DNA from: Escherichia phage vB_EcoM_G53
Strand: one strand, 5' to 3'
DNA: 64,000 nucleotides
Sequence record: MK327943.1
The notes beneath the pieces are model-generated. The model was not told the DNA's origin, made no database searches, and saw nothing but the letters and a program-made list of their open reading frames with translations. Numbering within the stretch: position 1 is the stretch's first letter; each line of letters starts with the position of its first letter. Position numbers and translations under genes: made by a program. Shown piece after piece: positions 27,596-38,181 of the stretch.

Positions 27596-29683
27596 CTATC
27601 CTTGGACAAATTTAAACGGAACTGATTCTAAATCCATTAAAGATGCTAACAATTTCAAACCTTTAGGTGCACTAGTTTTTTCTACAAATGAGGCAAAAGA
27701 TACCGGCTCATCTGATTCGATTTCACCTGTCATAGCAACTACCTCGCCTGTTTCCATGAGAACATCACCATCATAAATGACAGCTTCATCTAACTGGTCT
27801 GAGGACATGACTTCAGCTTGAATAAATTTAAGGTTGGATTCTAAACCTGCACCAGTATCAGATGACGCATCTGTAATTTTATTTATCTGCAAGAGAATGC
27901 CTCTAGGCAAAATAATTTCTTGCTCATTAGGGTGATTACTCAACTGTCCTGGATAAATCACGTTAACTTTATGGGCGCCATCAATAGCCCATCCAACGTT
28001 AACACGGATTTGTTCTGGTGCATGCATAGCTGTTCTTACTTGACTCGGAGAAATAGTAACACCTTCGTCATTATTGTCAATGTTAAGCTCTTTGCGAACT
28101 TCTTCAGGAGCAAGTCCAAGGGCAACGTTCTCTTTAAACCCACCGAAAATAATAGGAGCTAGTGAAGTGGAAACATAGTTTCTGAAGTAGAATACCTTAT
28201 TTTTAACCATTGCTTCGTAAATAGGCATTCTGATAGACTGAGCTCTATATAACGTTAGTCCTTCAGGTAAACGGTCTCCATTTAAAAACGCCGAATCAAG
28301 ACCATCAATAGCGCGTTTAACTTCATCTTCATCTGCAACATCGTAAAAATCTGGTTTATAACGACCTAACAACATATTATTGATATCGGTATACGCAGAA
28401 GAGGCATATTCACGAATAGCTCGTTTTTCAGCAACAGAGTATTGTTTAGGGTCCCGATTCATTGTTATATTAAAGGTGCCTCTAGCCGATTCTCGTGCAT
28501 AAGTATACATCACATTAGACAAGAACGCTGATTTACGTTGTTTCCAAGTTCTTTCAGATACTTCAGCTAAAACGTCGTCAGGCAGTTGGAAATTATCACG
28601 TCTAAAATCTTCAAACCATTCGTCTTTAATAGAGTCTGCAATTTCATTTGCAGCTTCAACAAAAGCAGCTAATGCTTTAACAGATGTTGTTTTTTCAGTT
28701 TTAATTTTCTTAGCAAACTTTTCTAAAGATGGCTTAATAACACTACCATAAGAAACTTCATCAGCAAATTTAAAGGATTCATCAATACGATTATAAATCT
28801 TATTTTCGATATCAGCAACTAAAGTGCCTTTTGCTGTGGACGATGCTTGGGCTAGTACGATTTCATATGCTTCAGGAAGTAATTCGGCTGTAGCTGGGCC
28901 ACTAACTTCTTTAGCAGAATTTTCGTATTTCTGGAATAACTCACCTTCTTGTCGGTCAGCTTCTAAAGATTGACTTGCTGCAATAGCACGACGAGAAATT
29001 TTAGTACGAGCAATAACAGGCTTATCTTTACGTTTTTCTTCTACAGCAGCAATAGAACCAGCGATAGCCGTTTCTTTGGTGACCTTTTCGCCAGTCTTTT
29101 TACTCACATAAACTTCGCCAACATCAGAATCTACTTTCGTGTACAACTCTGTGTTAATGTTAGGGATGCCTTTAATATCTTCAATGTTAGCATTTTTACG
29201 AACCATCATCACATAGGTGTGTTTACCTGTGAATTGATACATTGCCGTCAATACTTTAAAACGACCACCGGTTTTAGTAGAAACTAAACGAGCAAGAAGA
29301 GTTTGAAGTTGTTGTCCACGTCCTTTCAATTTCTTGGTAGGGAATCGGAACAGAACTGCATCCATACGAAGAGCTTTAACCTGTTCATATACTGTATTGA
29401 AAATGGTGTTGATTGCATCAATAGGAGCAGGACCAAGGCCATTTTTCAATTCAGCGAGATTACCCTTTTCAGACAGACTCATAATAACAACATGGGCGTA
29501 TTTGTCGCCAAGTTTAACTTGTTTTACAGCGTCGCCTTCGGAAAGGTAAGAGAATAAACGAACTACGATGTTTGTATCGATATCACCAATTTTCCAGACT
29601 TGTGGAACTTTAGCTTTAGGGTTCAAATTGACGACAGGAAGACTGCCTTCAGATTCAAACACTTCATTTAATTGTTCAGACAT
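27596..29683 (-). CDS. alt: Alt ADP-ribosyltransferase
   Basis: 695 aa (T4 Alt 682); position between gene 54 and gene 30. Confidence 0.75.
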   Translation of the reverse strand: MSEQLNEVFESEGSLPVVNLNPKAKVPQVWKIGDIDTNIVVRLFSYLSEGDAVKQVKLGDKYAHVVIMSLSEKGNLAELKNGLGPAPIDAINTIFNTVYEQVKALRMDAVLFRFPTKKLKGRGQQLQTLLARLVSTKTGGRFKVLTAMYQFTGKHTYVMMVRKNANIEDIKGIPNINTELYTKVDSDVGEVYVSKKTGEKVTKETAIAGSIAAVEEKRKDKPVIARTKISRRAIAASQSLEADRQEGELFQKYENSAKEVSGPATAELLPEAYEIVLAQASSTAKGTLVADIENKIYNRIDESFKFADEVSYGSVIKPSLEKFAKKIKTEKTTSVKALAAFVEAANEIADSIKDEWFEDFRRDNFQLPDDVLAEVSERTWKQRKSAFLSNVMYTYARESARGTFNITMNRDPKQYSVAEKRAIREYASSAYTDINNMLLGRYKPDFYDVADEDEVKRAIDGLDSAFLNGDRLPEGLTLYRAQSIRMPIYEAMVKNKVFYFRNYVSTSLAPIIFGGFKENVALGLAPEEVRKELNIDNNDEGVTISPSQVRTAMHAPEQIRVNVGWAIDGAHKVNVIYPGQLSNHPNEQEIILPRGILLQINKITDASSDTGAGLESNLKFIQAEVMSSDQLDEAVIYDGDVLMETGEVVAMTGEIESDEPVSFASFVEKTSAPKGLKLLASLMDLESVPFKFVQG

Positions 29684-29717
29684 AGTGTTTTCCTTTTAGT
29701 AATAATTTATATTTATG

Positions 29718-29739
29718 CCAAAAAGAGCCCGAAGGCTCT
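29718..29739 (-). terminator. Terminator hairpin (agagcc-UUCG-ggctct on minus sense) plus U-tract
   Basis: Perfect stem overlapping stop of upstream ORF, followed on minus sense by TTTTT. Confidence 0.5.
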
Positions 29740-29927
29740 TAATCCACAATCGGGAGCAAAGTACGATAAACTTCAAAATTAGGGCCTTTTTCGTACTTAT
29801 CAAAATTGTCCATAAAAATACGATAGGAATCGTTATTAGGAAAATCTAATATAATCTGAGAGCAAGAGGTGGAAACATCTCCACCATCCTTCTTAGCTAC
29901 AATAACTGTTTCTAAATAAGCTTTCAT
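29739..29927 (-). CDS. Hypothetical small protein downstream of gene 30
   Basis: 62 aa from ATG overlapping gp30 stop (TAATG); track start at 29948 is GTG. Confidence 0.4.
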   Translation of the reverse strand: MKAYLETVIVAKKDGGDVSTSCSQIILDFPNNDSYRIFMDNFDKYEKGPNFEVYRTLLPIVD

Positions 29928-31420
29928 TATAAACCTGTCTGGGACCACGGTCCAAATACGTCTTCAAACGAATCCGCTTCTGTTTTATCAAAACGGAACC
30001 CTTTAATAATTGGAAGGAAAATACCTACAGTACCTTCACGGCCTTTAGAATGAACCCATCCATTACATTCACAATCAGCGATACGTCCAATCAATTTACC
30101 TTCACGAGCTTCGGTCATTAATCGTTCACGGTCCAAATCATGACGCTCATCTAAAGGAATAAGAACCTTTACACCATCAACTGTTTTATGAGTTGTATCT
30201 TTAAACCCTGAACCACAATCGGTTGTAATACGACGACAACGTGATACGAGTTCGACACCACCTAATTTGTTAGGGTCTTTAGAGTGCTCATAGTATCCTA
30301 CAACTTCTAAAGCGATATCAATAACTTCTTTAAATTTAATTAGGTTCTTAGAGCGTTTGTTTTCCCAGTATGAATCACGGTTTTTAAGGATAATACCTTC
30401 AAGACCTTGGTCAACATATTTTTTATAAACCACTTTAGCTTCGTCAAGATTACGAACTAACTGATTTTCAATTGGCTCAATTCGCTTAAAGCCTTCAGCC
30501 ATATTTTCAAGAGCAGCAAAACGAACATCGTATTTCTGACCTTTAATTTTGCCATCAGAATAGACTTCATCTAAAGGAACATAGTCCCAGGCTTGAAGAA
30601 CCATACCTTCCGCTTCTTTAGGAGAAATAGTCCCTTGAAGAGATTTATTTGCTAAACCATTTGAAGTGCTACGGTCTGCAACTTGTACTTCTTCGGATTC
30701 TTCATTATCACCAAATAAGAACGACAGGTCATTTCCTGAGCTCACAGCCTTTTTAATATCAAATGAATGATAAACTAATTCACCGTCGATTAAAACCCCA
30801 TTAGGGTGTCTTTCACGAGCTTCTTTAGTCATTTCCATTAGTTCATCCGCTAATAGAGTAAGACCATGATATTCGTTGCCGGCACGAGAAAAGAATTGAA
30901 CACCATCATCGCGAACTTCAGCGAAACAACGAGCACCATCTGCTTTTAATTGGGCAAATGCGGGCCATTTAATATTTTTAGTAATCAATTTCTCGTCATA
31001 TGCAGATGCTAACATCTGTGGTTGCAATTGAATAAGTCCAGGCCACACCTTATTCGCGATAGACACTGAAGCACCTACTTCAAGGTCGCGCATCATTACA
31101 CGACGAAGGACTTCTACATCATCAGGTTTACCATCAGCGATATAACCCATGAGCTCTTTAATTGCAGCATTACCAGTGAGTTTACGAGTGGCTAATGTGA
31201 ACTCAATAAAATCCAACATGTCATCTAATTCAAGAAGACCATACGCTTGAGACCTTTCACCTGGTCCTGGCCATTTCTTAATATAATACTGGATACCACG
31301 TGCATATGTTAAACGATACACACGTTCAAGTAATTTGTTGTCCTTATTTTTCTTAAGGATTTCCTGTTTTGTTTTAGTAGAACCGATCGCAGCTATTTGG
31401 TTTAAAATATCTAAAATCAT
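29927..31420 (-). CDS. 30: ATP-dependent DNA ligase gp30
   Basis: 497 aa (T4 487); adenylation motif KADGAR; synteny. Confidence 0.9.
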   Translation of the reverse strand: MILDILNQIAAIGSTKTKQEILKKNKDNKLLERVYRLTYARGIQYYIKKWPGPGERSQAYGLLELDDMLDFIEFTLATRKLTGNAAIKELMGYIADGKPDDVEVLRRVMMRDLEVGASVSIANKVWPGLIQLQPQMLASAYDEKLITKNIKWPAFAQLKADGARCFAEVRDDGVQFFSRAGNEYHGLTLLADELMEMTKEARERHPNGVLIDGELVYHSFDIKKAVSSGNDLSFLFGDNEESEEVQVADRSTSNGLANKSLQGTISPKEAEGMVLQAWDYVPLDEVYSDGKIKGQKYDVRFAALENMAEGFKRIEPIENQLVRNLDEAKVVYKKYVDQGLEGIILKNRDSYWENKRSKNLIKFKEVIDIALEVVGYYEHSKDPNKLGGVELVSRCRRITTDCGSGFKDTTHKTVDGVKVLIPLDERHDLDRERLMTEAREGKLIGRIADCECNGWVHSKGREGTVGIFLPIIKGFRFDKTEADSFEDVFGPWSQTGL

Positions 31421-31686
31421 TTGATGTCCTCGATTTTGGTTACGGTTCTATTATAAGCCACTTCATCTAGAAGCGATTTCAACGTTTTCTGATAAGTTGT
31501 AATCCATTTACCGAGTCCTTCAACATAGTATTCTGAAATGTAGATGAACCCTTGTTCAACACACTCTTTAAATATTTCTGCGTCTTTTACTGAACGAAAC
31601 GATGGCCAGTCTCGAAAGAACATGTTAACGTGACCGTAGTCACGTGTGGTATTTTTGCCATCTGTAATATCATGAACTACAAACAT
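31417..31686 (-). CDS. Hypothetical protein (30.1 position)
   Basis: 89-aa ORF, ATG start overlapping gene 30 start region. Confidence 0.45.
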   Translation of the reverse strand: MFVVHDITDGKNTTRDYGHVNMFFRDWPSFRSVKDAEIFKECVEQGFIYISEYYVEGLGKWITTYQKTLKSLLDEVAYNRTVTKIEDIK

Positions 31687-31695
31687 AATTAACCC

Positions 31696-32520
31696 TTAAC
31701 AATTTATAGACCAAGTCCATTTAGACGAATCTAAAGGAAAGTTTTGAATCGTCCACCACGGCTGCATATCGGTTGGTCCTGGAGTTCGCCAGGTATATGG
31801 AGTGCGTGTTGTCGAGGGGCCACCAATTTGATTAGGCCATGCGCCTGGACTTGTTGCACCAGATTCTTTAAGCAAATCCGCCAATCGTTTTAAAAGGTCT
31901 TCACGATCTGAATCTGAATTATGCTCAGGTGGAACCAAACGAGATTCAATATCATCCCACGTGTGTACACGTTGTGCAGTACGAGGAATGGCATCACGTT
32001 CACCACGAGCCAACCAATAAATCGGTACATTAAGAATTTCTGCCGCATGGTCACAATGATGAGCTAAATCGTCAACGTAACAAATTACGTTATATTTTGT
32101 TTTAGCTAGTTCGAATAATTGTTCCTTTGAAGAATCATGACCACACATCATTACTTCAGAGAAAGCGCCTGGGAACAAAGCATTCAAATTAAATTGTCTA
32201 TTCAATCGAGCATCAATTGAATCACCTAGCGCCGTCACGGCTACAAAATTATAGTCTTCTTTTAGTTTATTGATAACTCGAAGAGCATCCGAATAAGGCG
32301 CTAAGTAACGAATAAAATCAGAGCTATTATATTTTTCTATTAATTGTTTACCAAGGTTATCGTCGGTATTGAACAGTTTACCAGGAGAAATAAATTTTTC
32401 GTCCTGAATCATTTTTAAAATATGTTCTAATGGAAGGTTATATTTTTGGGCAAAATAAGGAAGTCCAGATTGCCAGCTTAAACATACACCATCAATATCA
32501 GTCAAAATAGTAGGCTTCAT
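31696..32520 (-). CDS. HAD-like hydrolase-fold protein (30.2 position)
   Basis: 274 aa; N-terminal DIDGV (HAD motif I-like); Pro/Trp-rich GC-rich C-terminal tail. Confidence 0.5.
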   Translation of the reverse strand: MKPTILTDIDGVCLSWQSGLPYFAQKYNLPLEHILKMIQDEKFISPGKLFNTDDNLGKQLIEKYNSSDFIRYLAPYSDALRVINKLKEDYNFVAVTALGDSIDARLNRQFNLNALFPGAFSEVMMCGHDSSKEQLFELAKTKYNVICYVDDLAHHCDHAAEILNVPIYWLARGERDAIPRTAQRVHTWDDIESRLVPPEHNSDSDREDLLKRLADLLKESGATSPGAWPNQIGGPSTTRTPYTWRTPGPTDMQPWWTIQNFPLDSSKWTWSINC

Positions 32521-32984
32521 AAAGAGTCTCTTAATAGGTTTAACACGTCAATAAATTCATCTTCAGTTAGTATTGTATCATCTTTTGTTAGGTGGCTGGC
32601 CATGCTGTGCTTCAAAATTTTTCCTTTAGAGGCTTGTAAGGCATCACGAAACCCCTTGTTTTGGATCGCGGCTTCAAAATATGCATTTGTGTATAATTCT
32701 TTCCACGCTTCAGAGTATCTTGAAAATGGAACTCCTAACCAGAAGAGAGTCCCACGGTCCTGAGCTCTTGCATAAGACCTTCCAGCTTGCTGTGCAGCCA
32801 ATCCAGACAACCCAAATATACGTCTTTGTTGTTCAACATTTTTCACCTTACATCCTTGGAGAAATCCTTCAAGACCTCCGAATTGAATACCATCCATAAC
32901 AAAAGGCCATTGAGCAAAGTTACTTAATGCACATGACGGCCATTTGAAATTACTTCTTATTTCTAATTCAGACATCTTTAACAC
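32517..32984 (-). CDS. YbiA/NADAR-like (DUF1768) protein (30.3 position)
   Basis: LSNFAQWPFVMDG matches E. coli YbiA FSNFAAWPIKVDG from memory; track start is GTG, in-frame ATG at 32975. Confidence 0.55.
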   Translation of the reverse strand: MLKMSELEIRSNFKWPSCALSNFAQWPFVMDGIQFGGLEGFLQGCKVKNVEQQRRIFGLSGLAAQQAGRSYARAQDRGTLFWLGVPFSRYSEAWKELYTNAYFEAAIQNKGFRDALQASKGKILKHSMASHLTKDDTILTEDEFIDVLNLLRDSL

Positions 32985-33186
32985 TTATAATTTCAACATC
33001 AGCCCAATGTCCGTATCCAGGCATACGGTCTTCGATAGATAAATTTCTGTCATTTTTAGGCATTTTAATTGACGTAACGTATGGTTCTAAACGGTTTTCC
33101 GCGTAATATGGAAAAACGTCAGTTACACGATAAGTAACTTCAATCATTTCCGTACCAAACAATTTCTGGATTAATTTATTCAACAT
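32968..33186 (-). CDS. Hypothetical protein
   Basis: 72-aa ORF, ATG start, overlaps neighbours. Confidence 0.4.
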   Translation of the reverse strand: MLNKLIQKLFGTEMIEVTYRVTDVFPYYAENRLEPYVTSIKMPKNDRNLSIEDRMPGYGHWADVEIISVKDV

Positions 33187-33373
33187 GTTTCAACCCTTTA
33201 ATAGGAGATAACTCTTTACCCATACGTATGTCAGAAGTCCCATCAACCCATTGAACAGCATACGCTTCATTGATAATTCCAGCGGCAGTTTTAAATTCTT
33301 TGAGAACTTTAAAAATCATCCCAGGGATTCCAACACCTTTTAATTGGACTGTTTGTGCTATTAAAAATTTCAT
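33176..33373 (-). CDS. Hypothetical protein
   Basis: 65-aa ORF, ATG start. Confidence 0.4.
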   Translation of the reverse strand: MKFLIAQTVQLKGVGIPGMIFKVLKEFKTAAGIINEAYAVQWVDGTSDIRMGKELSPIKGLKHVE

Positions 33374-33397
33374 ATTTTTCCACTTACTAAAGAAATC

Positions 33398-33427
33398 ATT
33401 ATACTCTAATCCGTCCTTGGATGTACA
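33398..33427 (-). promoter_or_regulatory. Weak early-promoter-like element (TGTACA-N18-TATAAT)
   Basis: Perfect -10 TATAAT; poor -35; upstream of ORF 33176-33373. Confidence 0.3.
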
Positions 33428-34042
33428 CTACTTAATGAAATTAATTTCTACCGGATGAACAACAGGTTGAGCAGTGATATATTGAGTAATTGCTTTCATG
33501 ACTAGAGCTTCAGAACCAGGATTTTTCTCAACGAATTCACGTGCTAGGTTATGAGCTTCGAGTTCACTCAATAAACCGGAACGCTGGCATCCACGGTCTT
33601 GAGTACCCTGTTCAGATAAAAGGACTACTACATATTTTTCATCGTCGTAGGGCTTAGCCAGTTGAGCAAATGTTCCTTTACTTCCAAAAGGAGAGTTATG
33701 TCGCCACATCACGCCGTGAGGAGTTTCAACCTTCGTATATTCGTGCGGTCCATTTTTCTTAGTTTCTTGATGTGGAACTTCATAGACCTTAGGGTTAGGA
33801 CATTCAATAAAATGCTCATCTAAATCGGTCGAGAATATTAAAGTAAAACAATTACTGAATTTACCAACACCGGCCTGATAAATTTTACCTTCAGAAGTTC
33901 TAATTTCACAAACTGAGCCGGCATCAGTAACTTCTAAAACTTCAAAAGGCTCAATAAGGTCATATGAGAACATGTTTTTAAGGCGTGGAGTAATATCCCC
34001 ATTTTTAAAATTCATTTTATAAAAAGTATTAACTTTAAACAT
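33428..34042 (-). CDS. Hypothetical 204-aa protein
   Basis: ATG with SD gagga; track start at 34072 is TTG and reads through an upstream hairpin. Confidence 0.5.
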   Translation of the reverse strand: MFKVNTFYKMNFKNGDITPRLKNMFSYDLIEPFEVLEVTDAGSVCEIRTSEGKIYQAGVGKFSNCFTLIFSTDLDEHFIECPNPKVYEVPHQETKKNGPHEYTKVETPHGVMWRHNSPFGSKGTFAQLAKPYDDEKYVVVLLSEQGTQDRGCQRSGLLSELEAHNLAREFVEKNPGSEALVMKAITQYITAQPVVHPVEINFIK

Positions 34043-34054
34043 AATTTCCTCAGT

Positions 34055-34070
34055 GGGAGCCGAAGCTCCC
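34055..34070 (-). promoter_or_regulatory. UUCG-loop RNA hairpin (gggagc-UUCG-gctccc) without U-tract, 12 nt upstream of the SD
   Basis: Perfect 6-bp stem between two ORFs; no terminator U-tract. Confidence 0.4.
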
Positions 34071-34077
34071 AATTAAT

Positions 34078-34443
34078 TTAGATATCAAATTCGTTAAGAA
34101 CTACATCAAAGATTGCTTCGAGATGTTCAGGTTTAGCTCGGTTACTCAGGATATGACGAATCCAAGTTTTAACCAGAAGTTTACGATTAACACCATTCCA
34201 GCAAGGATGAGTACCTAAATCACGCTGACGGAAATCATCATCTAATGCAATTTTAAAATTTGAACCTTCCATCGTGATTGAAACCGTGATACCATTTTCA
34301 AATCGCATATAAACGTAATTAGGAGTCATGCACTGTTCGATTTCACAAACTGTACCGTTTTCGTGTTTCCATAAGCAAATAACTTCAGAAGAACCAGCAA
34401 TACCGTTAGAAACATATTTACGTTCGAAGTTGGTGTAGTTCAT
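34078..34443 (-). CDS. Hypothetical protein
   Basis: 121-aa ORF with promoter motif and SD upstream. Confidence 0.5.
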   Translation of the reverse strand: MNYTNFERKYVSNGIAGSSEVICLWKHENGTVCEIEQCMTPNYVYMRFENGITVSITMEGSNFKIALDDDFRQRDLGTHPCWNGVNRKLLVKTWIRHILSNRAKPEHLEAIFDVVLNEFDI

Positions 34444-34484
34444 TTTATTCTCCAGATGTTTAAGTTGTTTGTTGGTACAGGTCT

Positions 34485-34513
34485 ATAATAACATAACCTG
34501 TACCAAAGTAAAC
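34485..34513 (-). promoter_or_regulatory. Early promoter GTTTAC-N17-TATTAT within inverted repeat ggtacaggt/acctgtacc
   Basis: Hexamers with 17-bp spacer; 9-bp inverted repeat flanks the -10. Confidence 0.5.
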
Positions 34514-34517
34514 TGTT

Positions 34518-34886
34518 TTATGCAACTTTAATCCAATTGTCTAAGTTTAAAACACCTTTGGCTTTCATTTTTTCTATCAGGTTATCTGCTGTAATGCGTC
34601 CATTTTGATACCATGTAACATCTTCAGAGTAACCAGTTTCTTCGTCAACATATGTTTCTGAACGAATTTTACCGGTAATAATAGTTTTTAATTCATATGT
34701 GTCACCTGTGAAAAAGTTTGCTAACACAATTTTCCAAGAGAAATCATCTGAAGGACCTTCAGGGGTCATACAACCTACGAACTCAAATTGCTCTTTGTAT
34801 AACATCCACTGGAATTCTTTAATTTCGATAGCTTTATAACCATCGTGGTCTTTACATTTGATGTATGAGTTCAGATTGATTTTCAT
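34518..34886 (-). CDS. Hypothetical protein
   Basis: 122-aa ORF with promoter motif and SD upstream. Confidence 0.5.
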   Translation of the reverse strand: MKINLNSYIKCKDHDGYKAIEIKEFQWMLYKEQFEFVGCMTPEGPSDDFSWKIVLANFFTGDTYELKTIITGKIRSETYVDEETGYSEDVTWYQNGRITADNLIEKMKAKGVLNLDNWIKVA

Positions 34887-34928
34887 TTTGTTCTCCAGGT
34901 TGTTTTATTGATTAGATGGTACAAGTCT

Positions 34929-34957
34929 ATAGTAACACATCCTACAGGAGAGTAAAC
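34929..34957 (-). promoter_or_regulatory. Early promoter GTTTAC-N17-TACTAT
   Basis: Hexamers with 17-bp spacer upstream of ORF 34518-34886. Confidence 0.5.
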
Positions 34958-34993
34958 ATCTTTTTAAACTTTTTCTGCCCTAAACGCACAAAA

Positions 34994-35011
34994 GGGAGAC
35001 CGAAGTCTCCC
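34994..35011 (-). terminator. Terminator: gggagac-UUCG-gtctccc hairpin plus U-tract (minus sense)
   Basis: Same 18-nt hairpin as after genes 23, 32 and 35; minus sense followed by TTTTGTG. Confidence 0.65.
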
Positions 35012-35016
35012 TAAAA

Positions 35017-35196
35017 TTATGCAACAACCTTTCCAAAACGAGAAGCATCATCTCGAAGAACTGCACGTGCTCTGCGCATGATCTTCTCAACTGTTTGATT
35101 AATACGAGAGTTCGACCCACGCTTGTATCCAGCGCGTTTAGAGGTACCATCAACTTTCTTTTCAACTGCTTTCTTTGCTTTAGCTTGTTTTGCCAT
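35017..35196 (-). CDS. Small basic protein (59 aa), function unknown
   Basis: ATG..TAA ORF MAKQAKAKKAVEKK.. (Lys/Arg-rich), below the track's size cut-off; terminator just downstream. Confidence 0.45.
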   Translation of the reverse strand: MAKQAKAKKAVEKKVDGTSKRAGYKRGSNSRINQTVEKIMRRARAVLRDDASRFGKVVA

Positions 35197-35352
35197 TATA
35201 AATTCTCTTTAAATGAAAATGCAGGACTTATTGACATTGCCTGCGCAAGCCCTCAAGGGGAACATAGGTTTTGGATATTTAACGACAGGATAACCATAAA
35301 CCCGTCATCATACCAACCACGACTTAGACAGATAACCTTTTTCTGACGCGTG

Positions 35353-35381
35353 ATAGTACAAAATACATTCAAGAGGTACAC
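35353..35381 (-). promoter_or_regulatory. Promoter-like element GTGTAC-N17-TACTAT inside the rIII-downstream spacer
   Basis: Resembles the recurrent early promoter cassette; would give a leader of about 150 nt to ORF 35017-35196. Confidence 0.35.
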
Positions 35382-35491
35382 CGTAAAACTGCCGGGGCCT
35401 TAAAACTATAATGATTCGCAAATCATTAATCAGACAGTTCGACGGCTCCTCGATTTTCTAGCCGCACTTAAGGTAGCGAATCACCTAAAAC

Positions 35492-35740
35492 TTATTTAAG
35501 GGTAATAACAAAATGACGTACTGCTTTACGAGCTGCAGAAGCCAAAGGCTTAGCATATTTCAGTTCATCTTTTGCTTCCAGTTCAGAGGCCAAAGCTGCC
35601 TGTACCGGGTTCAGATGTTTGAAATAATGCAGGATTTCCAGTGCTTCGGCTTCAACATCAATCGACGCGCCGTAGTTTTCGTGACCGTTATTCCATGCGT
35701 TTCGTTGCAGTTCAAGAGCGTGTTGTAATTGTTTAATCAT
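35492..35740 (-). CDS. rIII: rIII lysis-inhibition accessory protein
   Basis: 82 aa, same length as T4 rIII; position between gene 31 and the 30.x cluster. Confidence 0.8.
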   Translation of the reverse strand: MIKQLQHALELQRNAWNNGHENYGASIDVEAEALEILHYFKHLNPVQAALASELEAKDELKYAKPLASAARKAVRHFVITLK

Positions 35741-35864
35741 TTTAAATTCTCAATTCGAGATAATATTTAGTAGCCACGTTCGTCTGAATTTCACCTTCTT
35801 TCGACAAGTCTCTCAGTTGTAGGCTACCGCTTAGAAGAGTGTTCTCTTCATATAGTTATTTATA

Positions 35865-36197
35865 TCACTTATAAAGACACGGAATAGCTTTATAGTGGCA
35901 TGTTACGAATTTCTGTTTAATTTCTTTAGGTTGTTTAAGTCCCAAAGCCACAAATGGATGTGGAACATTTCGAATTTGTCCAACTGGTAGTGGAGTCAAA
36001 TCACCGACTTCAACAAAACCTTCAGGAACATCAGGACCTACAGAATGAACTACACATAGTTCAGGAACTTCACCTTGAACACGTTTACCAATCACAAGTC
36101 CTGATTCGGTAACTTCTTCATCACCTGCTTGAGCGGGTTCAGAAACCAGAATGACATATTCACCAACAGCACGAATTGGGAGTTGTACTTCAGACAT
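35865..36197 (-). CDS. 31: Co-chaperonin gp31 (GroES analogue)
   Basis: 110 aa, near-identical to T4 gp31 as recalled. Confidence 0.9.
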
Positions 36198-36227
36198 CTT
36201 ATTTCCTTGTTGTTTGACGATAGATTA

Positions 36228-36254
36228 ATAATACCATACTATTCGTAAAGCATA
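36228..36254 (-). promoter_or_regulatory. Middle promoter for gene 31: MotA box taTGCTTtA plus -10 TATTAT
   Basis: MotA-box match 12 nt upstream of a -10 element, about 35 nt before gp31 ATG. Confidence 0.45.
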
Positions 36255-36563
36255 TTACATAAGAAGCAAACGTTCTACCGGAGTACCATCAACCGAAATT
36301 ACTTTATCAAGGCGGAAAGAACGCCACTGACCTAACTTGGTATCGAATGCTCGAACTGATTCACGAGGTTCAGAACGAACTTCTGATGCCGGATTGTTAT
36401 TTTCATATTTGACTTCAAGTTCATCGCGAGAAGCAAACATAGCGCGTACCTCACCGTTAGCCTTTTCAAATACAACACAATGAACGCCTACAGACAGAAT
36501 AGTTTTAATACGTTCACGAAGAACCATAGTTTCTTGTTCAGTTAAAATCATATTATTCACCAC
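36255..36563 (-). CDS. Hypothetical protein (31.1 position)
   Basis: 102-aa ORF from GTG; in-frame ATG at 36551 follows cd stop by 1 nt. Confidence 0.5.
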   Translation of the reverse strand: MVNNMILTEQETMVLRERIKTILSVGVHCVVFEKANGEVRAMFASRDELEVKYENNNPASEVRSEPRESVRAFDTKLGQWRSFRLDKVISVDGTPVERLLLM

Positions 36564-37134
36564 AAAAGTTTCGGATTTGTTCCCAATTCAGAGAACGAAG
36601 ATTATTACGAGAGTACTGAATTACTTCAATACCGGCTTGTTTTAGAATGTCTGCCCAATTTTCAGGAGATCGGTCGTATAATTCTGCATATACAACCTTT
36701 TTAATACCTGACTGTGTAATAGCTTTAGTGCAATCAGGACACGGAGAAAGCGTCGTATATAACGTAGCACCTTCAATAGAATTACCTTTACGAGCTGCAA
36801 ATAAAATTGCATTCAGTTCAGCATGGATTTCATTATTAGCAGACCATGCACTATGAGCGGCCCGATGTTCTTTAGCCAAAACAAAATTATCCACCCGTCC
36901 AAATGCTGTAGTGCCTTCTTTATGCCCAGCAACGATGACCGGGCTTGGTTTATTCTTCAACCAACCGTTTTCGGATGCATGTTCGCAACAGTTTGTACCA
37001 CCTGAAGGAGAGCCATTATAACCTGTAGAAATAATGCGTCCATCTTTTTCAATGACGGCACCAACTTTCCATGAACAACATTTTGATTCTTGAGAAATCA
37101 AATAAGCAATTTGAAGATATGTGCTAGCTTTCAT
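36553..37134 (-). CDS. cd: dCMP deaminase
   Basis: 193 aa as T4 Cd; zinc motifs HAELNAI and PCPDC. Confidence 0.9.
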   Translation of the reverse strand: MKASTYLQIAYLISQESKCCSWKVGAVIEKDGRIISTGYNGSPSGGTNCCEHASENGWLKNKPSPVIVAGHKEGTTAFGRVDNFVLAKEHRAAHSAWSANNEIHAELNAILFAARKGNSIEGATLYTTLSPCPDCTKAITQSGIKKVVYAELYDRSPENWADILKQAGIEVIQYSRNNLRSLNWEQIRNFCGE

Positions 37135-38181
37135 TATTGAACCTTATTAATATAAGTTAACAGCTCTTTAGTTTGTTCCCAACTGATGCACGCATCGGTA
37201 ACGGAAACGCCATAGGACATATTATCAGAAATTTTTTGATTTCCTTCATGTAGGAATGATTCTATCATAATTCCTTTGACCAAATCATTAGCTGCTAAAT
37301 TTTTACCAATACCAATTTGATTGCTATAATGCCCATCAGCGTTTGCATGGCTACAGTCAACCATTACATAATGATTCAGACCTACTGCACTTGCTTTGTT
37401 AGAAGCTTCTTGAATATCAGAAGAATGATAGTTGACCTACTGCACTTGCTTTGTTAGAAGCTTCTTGAATATCAGAAGAATGATAGTTCGGGCCGTTGGT
37501 CCCGCCACGCAATACGATATGCGTATTCTGATTACCTTCAGCTTCAACAATGCCTACAGTACCATCGACGTCCATACCCATATACCGATGAGGCCAGGCG
37601 GCACTATACATCGCGTCTGTAGCTACTTTAATAGAACCATTGGTTGCGTTCTTGAAGCCTACGCACATCGGTAGACCTGAAGCAATTTCACGATGTGTCT
37701 GACTTTCAGTCGTACGGGCGCCAATAGCAACCCATGAGAAAATACCAGAAAGATACTTAATCGTGAATGGGTCTAATACTTCAGTTGCTAATGGAAGTCC
37801 CATACGTAGAAGTTTACGACACAATGTTCGTGCAACTATAAGACCGTGGTTCATATCAAAACTTCCGTCAAGATATGGATCATTTACAAGACCTTTCCAA
37901 CCTACGGTAGTTCGAGGCTTTTCAAAATAAACGCGCATCACTAACAGAACATTAGGAAGACGAGTTTGAAGTTCAGCCAGACGTTTGCCGTATTCAACAG
38001 CAGCAATAGGGTCATGAATTGAACAAGGACCTACAACAATAAGTTTGCGTGGGTCTTCACCGTTCATAATCGAATTAACTTGTTCGCGATGAGAAGCCAC
38101 TTGTGATGCGTAAGCTTCCGACAAAGGAATAATCTCAGCCAGTTCTTTTGGAGAAATAAGTTTTCTGACGACAGGTAACAT
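37134..38181 (-). pseudogene. DAHP synthase (AroG/AroF-type 3-deoxy-7-phosphoheptulonate synthase), frameshifted by a 55-bp tandem duplication
   Basis: Track ORFs 37417-38181 and 37134-37364 both resemble E. coli AroG (GPCSIHDP, VMRVYFEKPRTTVGWKG, GARTTESQ, DCSHAN); they fuse in frame if one repeat copy is removed. Confidence 0.8.
37379..37488. repeat. Perfect 55-bp direct tandem duplication (2 copies)
   Basis: 37379-37433 equals 37434-37488 base for base; flanking bases differ; 55 is not a multiple of 3. Confidence 0.9.

Follow-up and report, generated by a model that had tools for sequence, protein, structure and literature searches.

The 64,000-nucleotide stretch of Escherichia phage vB_EcoM_G53 DNA considered here (MK327943.1; hereafter the window) carries a small minus-strand open reading frame not far from a gene for an ADP-ribosyltransferase. 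An initial annotation had described the frame as YbiA/NADAR-like, which raises the question of which ADP-ribose mark its product would remove, and against what. With high confidence, we read it as the intact adfN gene of an RB69-like phage, coding for a stand-alone ADP-ribosylglycohydrolase of the NADAR fold that counters the DarTG1 defence. It is a gene already described, as AdfN or gp30.3, and an ordinary one for a T-even phage.

Source phage and gene order

A megablast search with positions 31400..33400 returned matches in 665 phage records, the best being the RB69-like phages KAW3E185, mogra, APCEc01 and JK36 (99.0-99.4% identity). Since these closest matches are RB69-like and mogra is classified in the Tevenvirinae as a Mosigvirus, the window can be assigned to a T-even phage of the RB69 genus (Mosigvirus).

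The genes of the block from alt to 30.3 all lie on the minus strand, in the order alt, alt.1, ligase (gene 30), 30.1, 30.2, adfN (30.3) and 30.4, the same order being found in T4, RB69 and mogra. The Alt ADP-ribosyltransferase occupies 27596..29683 (-) and matches PF03496 (E = 6.5e-28), the ATP-dependent DNA ligase occupies 29927..31420 (-) and matches PF01068 (E = 1.9e-26), and both are syntenic with their T4 and RB69 counterparts; gene 30.1 corresponds to DUF3045, and the homologues of genes 30.2 and 30.4 extend over 31696..32520 (-) and 32968..33186 (-), respectively. The arrangement agrees with what had first been reported, namely a frame two genes away from DNA ligase with Alt on the far side of the ligase. 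A scan for promoters and terminators across 29500..36500 gave 24 hits against 20.6 expected in shuffled sequence, i.e., no excess.

Two other features of this region deserve mention. A minus-strand ORF of 204-214 aa at 33428..34072 (phrog_17531) occupies the place of T4/RB69 gene 30.6; it was detected in a single locus (L005) among 80 related viral loci, and looks like a replacement peculiar to this lineage within the hypervariable stretch 30.4-30.7. Farther on, a perfect 55-bp tandem duplication (37379..37488) lies inside a DAHP synthase (aroG-like) gene at 37134..38181 on the minus strand, which adjoins a dCMP deaminase gene. The synthase is one 330-aa CDS in mogra, and here the duplication shifts the frame to give ORFs of 254 and 76 aa; either the gene became a pseudogene recently, or the duplication is an artefact of assembly.

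The adfN coding sequence and its family

The frame as originally delimited, 32517..32984 on the minus strand, counts 155 codons and opens at a GTG at 32984, three codons upstream of an ATG at 32975 which is the annotated start of gene 30.3 in both T4 and RB69. In a three-way DNA alignment of the window with T4 and RB69, T4 has GCA where the window has the upstream GTG, and keeps both the ATG and its overlap with the stop codon of 30.4 (GATGTCTGA). Because the GTG is not conserved while the ATG and the overlap are, we place adfN at 32517..32975 (-), a full-length allele of 152 codons followed by a TGA stop, whose product has 152 aa. The frame first proposed is therefore real, its start having been set 9 nt too far upstream.

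Within gene 30.3, T4 also annotates an internal out-of-frame ORF, 30.3' (75 aa). In the window the equivalent frame (the second minus-strand frame of 32517..32975) is interrupted by an in-frame stop at codon 35; 30.3' is hence not conserved, which counts against its being a real gene.

The 152-aa product is 96% identical to T4 gp30.3 (NP_049816) over its entire length and 97% identical to RB69 gp30.3 (NP_861905) over residues 1-137, the portion that RB69 retains, and by this identity and its genomic position the gene is the orthologue of adfN (T4 gene 30.3). The six substitutions separating it from T4 (R11K, P89E, V120I, I125M, G128H, and A139D, from T4 to the window) are conservative or surface-type, and none falls on a family-invariant position, invariance being judged on an alignment of 60 homologues with identities down to ~35% from which the T4 row was left out. 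AdfN matches the Pfam family PF08010 (Phage_30_3) over the whole model (1-138 of 138), scoring 232 bits where the cut-off is 36 (E = 2.2e-69), and PHROG 652 (E = 1.9e-52), which is annotated as function unknown. No family was returned by an NCBIfam search with the adfN ORF, and PADLOC matched neither this ORF nor 30.2 to any of its defence-system models.

Homologues were found by tblastn in 1,510 phage records, ~730 of them at ≥80% identity in T-even phages of Escherichia, Shigella and Yersinia, and ~780 at <60% identity in T4-like phages of Klebsiella, Aeromonas, Acinetobacter and Vibrio. Among the matches listed from these 1,510 phage genomes, nearly all carry the GenBank label 'hypothetical protein'; the value for annotation is that the gene can be named adfN.

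Relationship to YbiA and the NADAR enzymes

The resemblance noticed at the outset concerned an N-terminal block, LSNFAQWPFVMDG (residues 17-29 in ATG numbering, 32889..32927 (-)), and a YbiA motif, FSNFAAWPIKVDG. The motif is found exactly at residues 29-41 in YbiA of E. coli K-12 (NC_000913), the phage block aligns to it, and A16, L17, S18, N19, F20, and F25 are invariant in the 60 family members. A pairwise BLASTP comparison of AdfN and YbiA gave E = 8e-6 with 33% identity over 57 residues, and hhalign matched the 61-sequence family profile to YbiA with a probability of 93% (E = 2.9e-7, 91 columns). The same profile ranked YbiA (2b3w) first among 177,635 PDB sequences (E = 0.0088); a single-sequence phmmer search of the PDB returned only a chance match (E = 2.4), which indicates that the family profile is needed to reach YbiA in that database. 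Taken at the level of sequence, the similarity between AdfN and YbiA goes beyond chance.

The Pfam NADAR model PF08719 did not match AdfN even at E ≤ 10, PF08010 being the only Pfam family retrieved; a distant family member (P0064) has precomputed matches to both models. As the phage clade has a Pfam model of its own, the silence of PF08719 does not speak against membership in the NADAR superfamily, although it means that the link rests on profile-profile, fold and pairwise evidence rather than on the curated NADAR HMM.

The residues expected of an active enzyme are in place. E36 (codon 32868..32870 (-)) and K43 (codon 32847..32849 (-)), the catalytic glutamate and lysine, are invariant in the 60 homologues, align to YbiA E48 and K55, and form the conserved E-x6-K that follows the first beta-hairpin in NADARs. 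H123 (codon 32607..32609 (-)), the histidine of the phage subfamily, is equally invariant, belongs to the last predicted strand (120-123), and stands opposite YbiA E125 in the hhalign register. According to the published rule for this strand, Glu marks YbiA-type, Asp DarG1/BC4488-type and His phage gp30.3-type enzymes (Schuller et al., 2023, PMC11543638; Cihlova et al., 2024, PMC11125620), and the His variant of phage NADARs was already remarked on by Schuller et al. (PMC11543638). The C-terminal helix, residues 138-152 (EDEFIDVLNLLRDSL; 32520..32564 (-); predicted helix 138-151), is missing in RB69. In T4 AdfN, the E36A variant has no in vitro activity and restores RB69 on DarTG1 hosts only in part, K43A gives partial rescue only, and truncation at the C-terminal point of RB69 lowers activity and rescue (Johannesman et al., 2025, PMC11825919).

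Taken together, the sequence and profile comparisons, the predicted fold and the catalytic residues support AdfN as NADAR/YbiA-like, as the initial annotation had it. The present analysis establishes the gene as a full-length orthologue in conserved synteny, with the NADAR fold and its catalytic residues. Its position relative to the two better-known branches is nonetheless distinct. E. coli YbiA (2b3w) and the Phytophthora NADAR (8bau), both of the YbiA family (PF08719), share ~20% identity with AdfN; YbiA has Glu125 where AdfN has His, and is encoded by a chromosomal housekeeping or SOS-operon gene that gives no protection against DarT1 (PMC11125620). DarG1-type (BC4488-family) NADARs such as that of Geobacter lovleyi (8bat) have an N-terminal extension absent from AdfN and an Asp as last-strand catalytic residue instead of His. 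Moreover, DarG1 pairs with a DarT toxin gene, whereas adfN is an orphan whose neighbours are 30.4 and 30.2, with no DarT1 toxin gene among them, and hence does not qualify as a DarTG1 antitoxin; nor can T4 AdfN substitute for DarG1 in uninfected cells. In the published tree, phage AdfN lies nearest to the DarG1-type antitoxin NADARs and not to YbiA (PMC11825919).

Activity of AdfN orthologues against DarTG1

NADARs were characterized as the antitoxins of DarTG1 systems, hydrolysing guanine-linked ADP-ribose on DNA (Schuller et al., 2023, PMC11543638). Working with purified gp30.3 NADAR from an E. coli phage, named as T4, Cihlova et al. (2024, PMC11125620) observed in vitro hydrolysis of guanine-ADP-ribose and not of thymine-ADP-ribose; gp30.3 did not rescue E. 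coli from DarT1. The T4 gene 30.3 was subsequently renamed adfN, for anti-DarT factor NADAR, by Johannesman et al. (Nat Commun 2025, PMC11825919), who reported that T4 or T2 deleted for adfN do not form plaques on DarTG1 hosts, that ectopic adfN rescues RB69 on DarTG1, that the purified protein strips ADP-ribose from DNA while its E36A variant does not, and that DarTG2 is not affected by AdfN. Transposon sequencing likewise found that T4 can do without 30.3/adfN on K-12 but not on DarTG1 hosts (bioRxiv 10.1101/2025.11.20.689424).

The role against ADP-ribosylating host defences that had been surmised for the frame has thus been demonstrated by experiment with the T4 orthologue, which is 96% identical (PMC11825919, PMC11125620). 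Both experiments proposed along with it are also in print: the in vitro hydrolysis of ADP-ribosylated DNA was carried out with T4 gp30.3 in two independent studies (PMC11825919, PMC11125620), and T4 and T2 lacking the gene were plated on DarTG hosts (PMC11825919). Enzymatic activity and anti-DarTG1 phenotype belong to these orthologues, and we infer both for the window allele from its 96% identity.

On this model, the DarT1 toxin of a DarTG1 host would attach ADP-ribose to guanine in the phage DNA and block its replication; AdfN would hydrolyse the guanine-ADP-ribose bond through E36, K43 and H123, the last of these being phage-specific, and removal of the ADP-ribose would restore replicable phage DNA. 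The published principle is that an 'orphan' antitoxin homologue carried by a lytic phage enzymatically undoes a DNA-ADP-ribosylating defence. T4 AdfN does not, however, neutralise DarT1 in uninfected E. coli, rescues non-T-even phages weakly, and is fully active only in T-even infection, for which its authors postulate a further phage factor (PMC11825919). This partial effect outside T-even infection implies that the mechanism as stated is incomplete.

Gene 30.2 as a possible partner

Gene 30.2 offers itself as the postulated T-even factor, in which case 30.3 and 30.2 would make up a two-gene anti-DarTG1 module. Its first codon shares bases with the stop of adfN (ATGA), which couples 30.2 translationally to adfN, and the two genes are adjacent in every close relative with sequence on that side. 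Adjacency extends to only 8 of 66 distant loci, and the fact that most distant loci lack 30.2 nearby runs counter to such a module, as does the T4 transposon screen, in which adfN alone was named conditionally essential on DarTG1 (bioRxiv 10.1101/2025.11.20.689424). We consider this partnership improbable.

As to what gp30.2 itself may be, HAD-like motifs (DIDGV, VTALG, K, and VDD) are found within its N-terminal ~200 aa, where D8, D10, G11, T96, K132, and D151 are invariant in eight homologues, while the C-terminal ~70 aa form a Pro/Trp/Thr-rich tail that is wholly different among T-even lineages and absent in distant homologues. The match to Pfam HAD_2 fell below threshold (E = 0.014), the best PDB match was a 5'(3')-deoxyribonucleotidase (2jao, E = 0.12), a profile of eight gp30.2 sequences found nothing in the PDB, and a single-sequence AlphaFold model reached a pLDDT of 37. 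The motifs hint tentatively at a HAD-type protein.

The neighbourhood of Alt

The initial annotation had pointed to the ADP-ribosyltransferase Alt and the candidate eraser as lying in one neighbourhood. Iyer et al. (2022, PMC9503650) likewise noted that T4-like NADAR genes are grouped with those of ADP-ribosyltransferases in the early region, and the proximity could mean that AdfN reverses the ADP-ribosylation carried out by Alt, ModA or ModB, for instance off-target or time-limited marks. The alt gene is indeed ~3 kb away on the same strand and in the same early-gene block, and early co-expression with ADP-ribosyltransferases was what Iyer et al. had remarked.

We surveyed 80 viral contigs with an AdfN homologue, 14 close (≥84% identity) and 66 distant (37-48%). 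The alt-30-30.1-30.2-30.3 block is kept in 13 of the 14 close relatives, the remaining contig ending before the block, so that alt synteny holds in all 13 close loci whose sequence extends far enough. Among the 66 distant loci, Alt is detectable within 8 kb in 3, a lower bound since tblastn may miss very divergent transferases, ligase and 30.2 are present in 8, and most have no T4 neighbour at all. When all ORFs within 5 kb of the 66 distant homologues were clustered, no real neighbour family exceeded 8 loci, and such clusters as were larger consisted of antisense ORFs that overlap the adfN homologue itself. A conserved operon partner of adfN and a conserved linkage to Alt were both rejected on these counts, and adfN behaves as a stand-alone cassette, matching the published term 'orphan'.

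The substrates also differ. [quoted passage not shown] Together with the scarcity of detectable Alt in the distant loci, this makes it very unlikely that AdfN erases the marks of the phage's own transferases. The shared neighbourhood that had been described stands, the functional pair finds no support, and the proximity of adfN to Alt is better seen as T-even synteny, a pairing of function being unlikely.

An improbable YbiA-type activity

Kinship with YbiA, the closest PDB relative by sequence and annotated as an N-glycosidase, suggests another substrate, namely that AdfN clears reactive intermediates of the riboflavin pathway or soluble ADP-ribose derivatives and takes no part in DNA repair. 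Iyer et al. (2022, PMC9503650) did prefer low-molecular-weight ADPr derivatives as substrates of phage NADARs. The phage family, however, has His (H123) where YbiA-type enzymes have Glu, the tree cited above groups AdfN away from YbiA (PMC11825919), and DNA de-ADP-ribosylation together with a DarTG1-specific phenotype was directly shown for the orthologue; a housekeeping N-glycosidase is accordingly a most improbable description of this protein.

The window allele compared with RB69

Adopting AdfN as an anti-DarTG1 enzyme, we may ask whether this copy is intact, as RB69 is DarTG1-sensitive because a single inserted T shortens its AdfN by 15 residues, and a full-length adfN goes with resistance in the remaining Tevenvirinae that were tested, Bas46 and Bas47 (relatives of RB69) among them (PMC11825919). 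The extra T in RB69 30.3 ends the protein after residue 137, with loss of the final 15 residues. It is absent from the window in the three-way DNA alignment, where the frame stays open through EDEFIDVLNLLRDSL to give 152 aa. A protein of the same length is encoded in 13 of 13 close viral loci checked, and an identical one occurs in other phage isolates, e.g., FL18 (100% identity). That the gene might be a decayed, non-functional remnant in this Mosigvirus lineage is suggested by membership in the genus of RB69, whose copy is truncated and inactive, but it is hardly credible for a frame that lacks the +T insertion and is open for its full 152 aa, retains every invariant residue, and recurs as the same protein in other isolates.

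The window phage and RB69 thus share a genus and differ in that RB69 has a natural loss-of-function adfN, whereas the window allele is full-length. T4, a Tequatrovirus and not a Mosigvirus like the window phage, agrees with the latter in AdfN length, in gene order, in the overlap of the adfN start with 30.4 and of its stop with 30.2, and in having E36, K43, H123 and the C-terminal helix. By homology to T4 at 96% identity, the window allele is probably a functional adfN, and an intact allele leads us to predict that, unlike RB69, the window phage is resistant to DarTG1.

Natural truncation may also have occurred elsewhere. In PinkRuby (PP925839) and Elenatom (PP925844) the tblastn match to AdfN ends at residue 144 of 152, and these phages may carry truncated adfN alleles like that of RB69. 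Locus L010 shows the same partial match, yet translates to the full 152 aa, and the apparent cut in PinkRuby and Elenatom may therefore just reflect C-terminal divergence.
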